NCBI GenBank assembly: GCA_964016885.1
Contig: OZ024742.1
Location: 330,336,001 to 330,400,000, forward strand
DNA: 64,000 bases
Reading direction: 5' to 3'
DNA from: Eledone cirrhosa
Lineage: Eukaryota
Every line of letters begins with the position of its first letter. The stretch's first letter is position 1. Of the stretch, positions 29,326-32,341 are shown piece by piece. The notes under the pieces were generated by a model. The model ran no database searches. It worked only from the letters and a program-made list of their open reading frames with translations, and was not told the origin of the DNA. The position numbers and the translations under genes are program-made.

Positions 29326-32300
29326 CATTCTGAAGAGAGAAGAAACATTTAGATATAATTAGTAATAAAATGTATCATACCTAAACTGTTCCTAAATTCC
29401 TCGACTACGTAGTTTCGTGGCATAAACAAAAACAATATATCAAAGATATAGAGTCCTTGCGAGGTCTGCCGACTTATCAAGAGGATACCTCATTTTACTA
29501 GTCTCAAGAACGCGTCTACACGACGTGAGAAAGAATCCCAAAAGGCGGAGGGGGAGATAGTCACGCGATATAACGGTCGAGAAACAGAGCTAAGCCTCTT
29601 ATAACCACGAAGAAAATACCACGGAGGCGGAGGGGGTATTCATATCGAGGCCGTAGAAGAGGTAGTGAAGAAGGCGAGAAGTATGAGTAATGGAAGCTTT
29701 CCAGTTGTCCCCACACTTCAAAGATTGCTCGACCAGAGGGAGTTATTAATATATTTAGAAACACACAGATACATGCGGACACACACATATATACATGAAT
29801 GCATCCGCACCCAACTGTGAGTTAAGGGTGCCAACTTCACCGATGTTGCTCAATGAATGACTGGGACAGACCAATTCAGTTTGAACCAGACTGAACCAGT
29901 ATCAGAGTTAAAAATACATTATGAAGAGAGAAGAAACATTTAGATATAATTAGTAATAAAATGTATCATACCTAAACTGTTCCTAAATTCCTCGACTACG
30001 TAGTTTCGTGGCATAAACAAAAACAATATATCAAAGATATAGAGTCCTTGCGAGGTCTGCCGACTTATCAAGAGGATACCTCATTTTACTAGTCTCAAGA
30101 ACGCGTCTACACGACGTGAGAAAGAATCCCAAAAGGCGGAGGGGGAGATAGTCACGCGATATAACGGTCGAGAAACAGAGCTAAGCCTCTTATAACCACG
30201 AAGAAAATACCACGGAGGCGGAGGGGGTATTCATATCGAGGCCGTAGAAGAGGTAGTGAAGAAGGCGAGAAGTATGAGTAATGGAAGCTTTCCAGTTGTC
30301 CCCACACTTCAAAGATTGCTCGACCAGAGGGAGTTATTAATATATTTAGAAACACACAGATACATGCGGACACACACATATATACATGAATGCATCCGCA
30401 CCCAACTGTGAGTTAAGGGTGCCAACTTCACCGATGTTGCTCAATGAATGACTGGGACAGACCAATTCAGTTTGAACCAGACTGAACCAGTATCAGAGTT
30501 AAAAATACATTATGAAGAGAGAAGAAACATTTAGATATAATTAGTAATAAAATGTATCATACCTAAACTGTTCCTAAATTCCTCGACTACGTAGTTTCGT
30601 GGCATAAACAAAAACAATATATCAAAGATATAGAGTCCTTGCGAGGTCTGCCGACTTATCAAGAGGATACCTCATTTTACTAGTCTCAAGAACGCGTCTC
30701 GTGGTATTTTCTTCGTGGTTATAAGAGGCTTAGCTCTGTTTCTCGACCGTTATATCGCGTGACTATCTCCCCCTCCGCCTTATGGGATTCTTTCTCACGT
30801 CGTGTAGACGCGTTCTTGAGACTAGTAAAATGAGGTATCCTCTTGATAAGTCGGCAGACCTCGCAAGGACTCTATATCTTTGATATATTGTTTTTGTTTA
30901 TGCCACGAAACTACGTAGTCGAGGAATTTAGGAACAGTTTAGGTATGATACATTTTATTACTAATTATATCTAAATGTTTCTTCTCTCTTCATAATGTAT
31001 TTTTAACTCTGATACTGGTTCAGTCTGGTTCAAACTGAATTGGTCTGTCCCAGTCATTCATTGAGCAACATCGGTGAAGTTGGCACCCTTAACTCACAGT
31101 TGGGTGCGGATGCATTCATGTATATATGTGTGTGTCCGCATGTATCTGTGTGTTTCTAAATATATTAATAACTCCCTCTGGTCGAGCAATCTTTGAAGTG
31201 TGGGGACAACTGGAAAGCTTCCATTACTCATACTTCTCGCCTTCTTCACTACCTCTTCTACGGCCTCGATATCAATACCCCCTCCGCCTCCGTGGTATTT
31301 TCTTCGTGGTTATAAGAGGCTTAGCTCTGTTTCTCGACCGTTATATCGTGTGACTATCTCCCCCTCCGCCTTTTGGGATTCTTTCTCACGTCGTGTAGAC
31401 GCGTTCTTGAGACTAGTAAAATGAGGTATCCTCTTGATAAGTCGGCAGACCTCGCAAGGACTCTATATCTTTGATATATTGTTTTTGTTTATGCCACGAA
31501 ACTACGTAGTCGAGGAATTTAGGAACAGTTTAGGTATGATACATTTTATTACTAATTATATCTAAATGTTTCTTCTCTCTTCATAATGTATTTTTAACTC
31601 TGATACTGGTTCAGTCTGGTTCAAACTGAATTGGTCTGTCCCAGTCATTCATTGAGCAACATCGGTGAAGTTGGCACCCTTAACTCACAGTTGGGTGCGG
31701 ATGCATTCATGTATATATGTGTGTGTCCGCATGTATCTGTGTGTTTCTAAATATATTAATAACTCCCTCTGGTCGAGCAATCTTTGAAGTGTGGGGACAA
31801 CTGGAAAGCTTCCATTACTCATACTTCTCGCCTTCTTCACTACCTCTTCTACGGCCTCGATATGAATACCCCTTCCGCCTCCGTGGTATTTTCTTCGTGG
31901 TTATAAGAGGCTTAGCTCTGTTTCTCGACCGTTATATCGCGTGACTATCTCCCCCTCCGCCTTATGGGATTCTTTCTCACGTCGTGTAGACGCGTTCTTG
32001 AGACTAGTAAAACGAGGTATCCTCTTGATAAGTCGGCAGACCTCGCAAGGACTCTATATCTTTGATATATTGTTTTTGTTTATGCCACGAAACTACGTAG
32101 TCGAGGAATTTAGGAACAGTTTAGGTATGATACATTTTATTACTAATTATATCTAAATGTTTCTTCTCTCTTCATAATGTATTTTTAACTCTGATACTGG
32201 TTCAGTCTGGTTCAAACTGAATTGGTCTGTCCCAGTCATTCATTGAGCAACATCGGTGAAGTTGGCACCCTTAACTCATAGTTGGGTGCGGATGCATTCA

Positions 32301-32341
32301 TGTATATATGTGTGTGTCCGCATGTATCTGTGTGTTTCTAA
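29326..32341. repeat. Palindromic concatemer of a 591-bp HHR-bearing unit (~2.3 copies minus-sense + ~2.8 copies plus-sense)
   Basis: Period 591 (ORF track 29561/30152, 31126/31717); inversion junction ~30699; (TA)n on both sides. Confidence 0.95.
31429..31516 (+). ncRNA. Type I HHR with U3-A8 core variant (family C); also 30838-30925(+), 32020-32107(+), 29398-29485(-), 29989-30076(-), 30580-30667(-)
   Basis: TCCTC-TTGATAA-GTcGGCA...TGCCAC-GAAA-CTACGTAG-TC-GAGGA; 5-bp stem I, palindromic stem III, GUC site. Confidence 0.8.

Follow-up and report, generated by a model that had tools for sequence, protein, structure and literature searches.

The 64,000-nt stretch of DNA analysed here (the window) contains a two-armed array that is very probably a recent insertion of a family of 591-nt non-coding elements, likely a non-LTR retrozyme and likely copied into a (TA)n microsatellite by a Penelope-like reverse transcriptase (RT) and endonuclease. 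We found that the array consists of two unequal arms of a 591-bp repeat, whose copies are 99.2-99.9% identical, and that six type I hammerhead motifs with a U3-A8 core, three per strand, lie within this one (TA)n-embedded insertion. Unit positions are numbered from +1 at window 30921, the first base past the predicted cut. The features are as follows.

29186..29325: (TA)n target microsatellite, left flank; the left arm runs into the tract (TRF)
29323..30699, minus strand: left arm, 1,377 nt or 2.33 units; outer 3' end at +80, inner 5' end at +477
29398..29485, minus strand: type I hammerhead with U3-A8 core, predicted cut after 29403 (motif scan)
29989..30076, minus strand: type I hammerhead with U3-A8 core (motif scan)
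30580..30667, minus strand: type I hammerhead with U3-A8 core (motif scan)
30699..30700: head-to-head 5'-5' junction, +477 joined to +371 with 0 added bases and no hairpin centre
30700..32347, plus strand: right arm, 1,648 nt or 2.79 units; inner 5' end at +371, outer 3' end at +245
30838..30925, plus strand: type I hammerhead with U3-A8 core (motif scan and fold)
30921..31511, plus strand: monomer from cut site to cut site, 591 nt, no ORF (frame scan and circular fold)
31429..31516, plus strand: type I hammerhead with U3-A8 core (motif scan)
32020..32107, plus strand: type I hammerhead with U3-A8 core (motif scan)
32342..32357: (TA)n target microsatellite, right flank (from the sequence)

An initial annotation of this DNA had described a palindromic concatemer with six TTGATAA motifs, each in an otherwise well-formed hammerhead frame. 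All six motifs were confirmed at a period of 591, and the 591-bp repeat was confirmed as well, but the array is not a true palindrome, as its arms are unequal and its junction has no symmetric centre. Every copy reads TCCTC-TTGATAA-(57 nt helix II)-GAA-ACTACGTAGT-C-GAGGA. In the hammerhead at 30838..30925, stem I is formed by 30838-42 and 30921-25, U3 lies at 30843 and A8 at 30848, and the long helix II (30850-30906) is followed by GAAA, the palindromic helix III (30910-30919) and C17 at 30920. The core agrees in 6/6 window copies with the consensus YUGANRA...GAAA...UH plus a Watson-Crick pair between positions 3 and 8 (U3 UGA U A8 A, GAAA, U16.1 C17). The three helices comprise an open 5-bp helix I, a helix II opened by G10.1-C11.1 and the palindromic helix III, and paired cells in the hammerhead amounted to 97.7% over 12 sequences. 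Since the six motifs stem from one copying event, their agreement counts as one observation and not as six. The window insertion lies near the commonest haplotype of the family and is less clean than other insertions. An A variant was seen at window 30782 and 31964, in units 1 and 3 of the right arm, and was absent from unit 2 and from the left arm; gene conversion, a mixed template and assembly are the possibilities for it.

Folding of the monomer as a circle gave -167.5 kcal/mol (z = -5.6 against 30 dinucleotide shuffles), and this stability was confined to the ribozyme strand, the antisense circle (-128.8 kcal/mol) being similar to shuffles. A fold constrained to the hammerhead lay just 1.1 kcal/mol above the local minimum. 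By itself the helix III palindrome stays unfolded, and with a second copy it is computed to form a 10-bp dimer (-12.9 kcal/mol); dimeric Penelope-type hammerheads are described with the same helix III layout (PMC4209133). When the circle takes its minimum-energy fold, the 5' strand of helix I (window 30832-30842, +503 to +513) pairs with a GAGG just upstream that is conserved in both subfamilies, and in this folding model the pairing could possibly act as a switch that holds the ribozyme off in the circle. The six frames of the unit held no ORF longer than 110 codons between stops, which indicates that the unit is non-coding, and accordingly it lacks the ORF with RT and GIY-YIG domains that defines an autonomous Penelope-like element.

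The annotation had also expected standard CUGANGA searches to miss this family. The surprise of the core proved overstated, as U3-A8 cores are published and also occur in autonomous Penelope-like families of the same genome. Natural U3-A8 hammerheads were reported in 2011 as several scattered examples and, in the available text, stated to be active in vitro (Perreault et al., PMC3088659), and about 1,300 U3-A8 matches have been tied to the Cercyon Penelope-like elements of Schistosoma (Cervera and de la Pena 2014, PMC4209133). The compensatory 3/8 pair is common to the 2011 hammerheads and to ours, whereas those were scattered examples and the present family comprises about 6,800 motifs. Rfam hammerhead models gave 0 matches at the gathering score in the 64-kb window. 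They also missed the canonical CUGAUGA hammerheads there, so the miss is a limit of the models and is not due to U3-A8.

Family counts were obtained by sequence-pattern searches of the 3.0-Gb assembly. The 19-nt stem III/stem I motif had 7,681 genome matches, against 0 for the reversed control, and the complete motif had 6,778, again against 0, so the motif is not a product of chance. When the flanks were fixed and positions 3, 7 and 8 were left free, U3-A8 was present in 6,040 of 6,066 matches and C3-G8 in none; 12 matches departed from U3 (6 of them C3-A8) and 14 from A8 (8 of them U3-G8). Short-read contigs from an independent run likewise showed no alternative letter at the 5% level at either position. 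Thus the other copies do hold U3-A8, and the pattern expected of plain decay, a C3-G8 consensus with unlinked single changes, was not seen: U3-A8 is the fixed state of the family and not a decayed C3-G8. Covariation at 3/8, the other outcome suggested for the copies, was absent within the family, and genome pattern searches with the same or a relaxed helix III detected no C3-G8 sister families. Other C3-G8 hammerheads with a long helix II (in the window and at locus L078) were considered as relatives and rejected for want of real similarity, their scores being at or near the best of 100 shuffles.

We then considered selection. An older subfamily was sampled through an anchor outside the ribozyme (131 matches, 30 fetched), so the sampling was not conditioned on the ribozyme itself; 25 copies were left once two previously sampled loci, two segmental duplicates and an interrupted copy had been dropped. 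The subfamilies compared are 75-83% identical. The majority letter of the older copies (n=25) differed from the window unit at 1/44 ribozyme positions and at 31/95 neighbouring positions (Fisher P = 2e-5), with U3 kept in 25/25 and A8 in 24/25 aligned rows. Judged from these sequence comparisons, the hammerhead motif is under purifying selection. The double change had originally been taken to indicate selection for catalysis; selection on the motif is upheld by the subfamily comparison, while the argument from six agreeing copies falls away, as these represent one event. Coding overlap was considered as a reason for the conservation and rejected: the core is crossed by a short ATG frame, but this differs in length and frame between subfamilies, and most changes between them are non-synonymous.

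The helix II extension was 96% paired in 12 chosen sequences; six of its pairs had a change in one strand and one pair had changes in both, and its covariation score was no better than that of shuffles (194/500 reached it). A relative at 71% identity (L205) has kept U3-A8, and a double change in its helix III has preserved the palindrome. A broken 3-8 pair was found in two tandem copies each at L129 (U3-G8) and L130 (U3-U8), which means that a core mutation does not prevent at least one round of copying. We consider it likely that U3-A8 keeps the tertiary 3-8 pair, and likely that it was inherited from a Penelope-like clade that already carried U3-A8.

To describe the anatomy of the insertions, arms were mapped at 54 loci, together with 18 further loci of the main subfamily and 15 of the old one. 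All opposite-strand adjacent junctions among the 54 loci were head-to-head (28/28). Resolved 3' ends lay at +80 or at +245 to +247, all running into (TA)n, and loose ends running into AT repeats were found at the same two sites (window 31000 and 31165) in short-read contigs of an independent run. Both sites were about equally used by single arms (14 and 13, with 2 other ends). Among two-armed insertions with both ends resolved, 43/45 had one end of each type (P = 3e-11 if the ends were chosen independently), comprising 32/33 in the main subfamily and 11/12 in the old one, with L129 and L087 as the exceptions; eight loci with unresolved ends (L001, L015, L018, L039, L045, L092, L094 and L102) were excluded from this count, and a segmental duplicate in L025 was counted once. 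Pure TA microhomology was rejected as the cause of the ends, as none of them falls at the longest TA-like stretch of the unit (+207), and hence the ends are position-specific. The insertions thus display the 5' truncation, head-to-head inverted copy and (TA)n bias of endonuclease-bearing (EN+) Penelope-type insertions, and also the one-sided tail with two 3' ends, with a tail of 165 nt rather than 30-40 (43/45).

The two arms of an insertion also share their haplotype. Differences per kb were 3.2 within arms (69 pairs) and 3.1 between the two arms of an insertion (61 pairs), compared with 20.0 between loci (6,388 pairs), and for 43/54 copies no other locus was closer than the opposite arm. At L062 one private haplotype runs through all 5 + 3 units. 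Arm lengths were uncorrelated across two-armed insertions. Together, the fixed paired ends and the shared haplotype suggest that a Penelope-type enzyme reverse-transcribed one template by twin priming.

The template was likely a circle. A circle is favoured because a new haplotype has to pass through one unit to fill arrays and linear copying cannot lengthen them. The mechanism that we propose would run as follows. Tandem arrays would be transcribed, and adjacent hammerheads would pair via the palindromic helix III and release monomers; a host ligase would then circularise these, as has been shown for other animal retrozymes. A Penelope-type protein, probably a dimer, would cut both (TA)n strands; priming on the same RNA would start at +80 for one strand and at +245 for the other, each cDNA would go round the template to a varying extent and so give multi-unit arms, and the truncated 5' ends of the two arms would then be joined. 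On the boldest reading, put forward tentatively at a little under an even chance, each two-armed insertion would be the fossil of an asymmetric event in which a dimeric Penelope-type enzyme twin-primes one retrozyme circle, always at +80 on one strand and at +245 on the other, and rolls round it. The mechanism fits what the available text reports of Anolis Poseidon, whose protein cleaves both strands and extends them, has two internal RT start sites and is predicted to form a dimer (PMC11167929), as well as the circle model for animal retrozymes (PMC7229834, as far as its available text goes). The one-of-each pattern is also shown by an unrelated 496-bp family and by single copies of two autonomous families. 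Counted against the mechanism are the exceptions L129 and L087 to the rule for ends, near-symmetric junctions in 6/32 insertions, the mutant cores of L129 and L130, and the variant of the window insertion in two non-adjacent units of one arm only.

According to the accessible parts of the reports concerned, retrozyme circles have been shown in animals, with copying from circles proposed and not shown (PMC7229834), and the mechanism of tandem and inverted Penelope-like insertions is named as open (PMC8557442). Penelope-type hammerheads are often weak (PMC4209133, section 8), and 8/9 Xenopus retrozyme dimers were without cleavage in vitro in the accessible text of bioRxiv 2026.07.22.740005. A self-closing contig of 620-621 nt, obtained in two runs, was rejected as evidence of a circle since tandem DNA gives the same.

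The same element could also have been twin-primed on an uncleaved, long linear RNA transcribed from a parent array, with no circle needed and the hammerhead kept for another step such as RNA end formation or protein binding. For the Anolis Penelope protein in vitro, the available text of PMC11167929 gives uncleaved RNA as the main substrate and the ribozyme as dispensable, ribozyme mutants still being inserted; a linear multimer from a homogeneous parent array could therefore also yield one haplotype. Young parent arrays are in fact homogeneous, arms cross the cut site without a scar, and the core mutants of L129 and L130 were copied. Against a linear template, many distinct haplotypes each fill every unit, up to the 5 + 3 of L062, for which a new mutation would need a one-unit bottleneck, arrays cannot grow longer by copying of linear multimers, and the motif is under selection. 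We regard this explanation as somewhat unlikely.

Less probable still, and in our judgement doubtful, is that the inverted arm arises by self-priming or fold-back of the first cDNA (or from an antisense template), with endonuclease resolution leaving the one-sided tail. Such an origin has been put forward for Penelope structures that are head-to-head and have palindromic junctions (PMC3846280, in its available text), and it explains the shared haplotypes of the arms. Junctions within 25 nt of symmetry were found in 6/32 insertions (P = 0.05), and in 16/32, that of the window included, one arm is contained in the other. However, neither arm is contained in the other in the remaining 16/32, which excludes fold-back copying for those insertions; at L044 and L055 the arms are without any common sequence, and the two sites are used with equal frequency by single arms. 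A minority of insertions may arise by fold-back.

A DNA-level satellite or assembly artefact carrying a dead hammerhead relic is very improbable and largely refuted: the copies are tandem and near-identical, long-read assemblies can create inverted joins, the window junction at 30699/30700 was unbridged among the listed short-read contigs (a gap that proves nothing) and a satellite route is discussed in the accessible part of bioRxiv 2026.07.22.740005, but the family is scattered over the genome in thousands of short insertions whose fixed ends lie in (TA)n, each locus has its own haplotype and junction, the polarity is strictly head-to-head, an independent run shows identical ends and the ribozyme is selectively conserved.

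The family was next set against known systems, several of them consulted in the available text only. At the sequence level the family has what is expected of a non-LTR retrozyme, namely tandem non-coding units that each carry a type I hammerhead, dispersal, high copy number and no LTR. Like the animal non-LTR retrozymes in the available text of PMC7229834 and bioRxiv 10.64898/2026.07.22.740005, it has one type I hammerhead per unit, a structured monomer, a high copy number and co-occurring Penelope-like elements. The 591-bp unit is within the 51-972 bp range of the 2026 retrozyme survey (Li, Clavereau and Pollet, bioRxiv 10.64898/2026.07.22.740005) and exceeds the 170-400 nt of the RNAs that Cervera and de la Pena examined in 2020 (PMC7229834). 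Unlike those retrozymes, as their available descriptions go, the present family has a U3-A8 core and a 57-nt helix II, and no head-to-head arms with two fixed and paired 3' ends were encountered in those descriptions. The pLTR hammerheads of endonuclease-bearing Penelope-like elements, Schistosoma Cercyon included (PMC4209133), share with ours the type I form, a palindromic helix III suited to dimers, U3-A8 and opposite-strand pairs 100-700 bp apart; here the motif is near-invariant, its arrays are multi-unit and non-coding and helix II is much longer, whereas there the copies are mostly single and heterogeneous.

EN+ Penelope-like insertions (Neptune, Naiad and Penelope/Poseidon) are described, in the accessible text of PMC8557442 and PMC3846280, as having partial tandems, an inverted 5'-truncated copy, a one-sided 30-40 bp tail and a (TA)n bias. 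Both they and our insertions are head-to-head and 5'-truncated, with two alternative 3' ends, a one-sided extension and an AT-rich target; ours differ in having no ORF, a 165-nt tail and, in some cases, multiple units in both arms. In the Anolis Poseidon experiments in vitro the start sites did not differ between strands (PMC11167929), in contrast to the one-of-each rule here (43/45). This rule, or twin priming of retrozymes, was not found in the literature covered; subscription papers and supplements (Fig. S2 of PMC11167929) may bear on it. The U3-A8 core itself is known from print, and the value of the family lies in its insertion anatomy.

Candidate helper elements were surveyed at 90 loci around GIY-YIG matches, taken from 150 listed among 10,596 candidates. 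At least three related families (A, B and C) with an endonuclease followed by a hammerhead were present at these loci. Families A and B encode RT and GIY-YIG and have U3-A8 hammerheads in their terminal repeats, and family C has C3-G8. One family A copy (L182:3809-6622, minus strand) has a 938-codon frame with RT and GIY-YIG between two U3-A8 hammerhead repeats and two alternative 3' ends, +82 and +148, and a second (L183) has an 844-codon open frame with the same domains; family A is a candidate helper family. Endonuclease identities were 63/119 (A-B), 52/113 (A-C) and 43/109 (B-C). Family A carries the cysteine linker given for Neptune and Nematis in the available text of PMC8557442. Two-armed single copies of families A (L193) and C (L196) each have one end of each type.

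Comparison of the unit with the three families from the 90 loci detected no homology beyond microsatellite-like matches, and the similarity of its ends to those of family A was weak, with 102 and 19 of 500 shuffles reaching the score. Penelope-like protein fragments beside copies of the family (L053, L205 and L177) were rejected as helpers, since (TA)n lies between or the orientation differs, and they look like independent insertions. Within the window, a family B 3' end (28481-28712, plus strand) with a U3-A8 hammerhead remnant whose helix III is mutated runs into (TA)n 600 bp upstream of the 591-bp array. Broken Penelope-like RT/GIY-YIG fragments of several families, with weak Pfam matches, lie at 14460-15578 (+), 44335-45057 (+), 1882-2460 (+) and 33813-34319 (-).

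The window also holds a second head-to-head array in (TA)n at 36431-41506, with 7.7 + 2.6 copies of the 496-bp unit. This family is unrelated to the 591-bp unit, has a canonical CTGATGA minimal hammerhead with a 6-nt palindromic helix III, and gave 17,440 genome motif matches. Its ends in the window lie near +281 and +342, one per arm; at 20 loci plus the window, about 8 two-armed copies were one-of-each and the rest were single-armed or unclear from internal microsatellites. An older copy occupies about 27200-27755. Other type I hammerheads with a canonical C3-G8 core and a palindromic helix III were found at 27839 (+), 4590 (-) and 62260 (+) and as head-to-head pairs at 47845 (-)/47963 (+) and 50614 (-)/54135 (+), with zero Rfam detections for any of them. 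More short inverted-repeat elements, at 34683-35093, 47745-48063, 50005-50443, 55787-56180, 8346-9075 and 10322-10543, are probably other two-armed insertions.

These findings bear on hammerhead surveys, as searches limited to CUGANGA undercount hammerheads, here by about 6,800 motifs and two autonomous families. If twin priming of a retrozyme circle is correct, the insertions would be genomic evidence for twin-primed rolling-circle retrotransposition, and the mechanism would explain the inverted copy and one-sided tail of Penelope-like elements generally. The family is young and offers thousands of dated, haplotyped insertions and two fixed start sites, with intact candidate helper frames in the same genome. 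The insertion anatomy makes the copying steps directly testable and provides a modest but real handle on an open mechanism.
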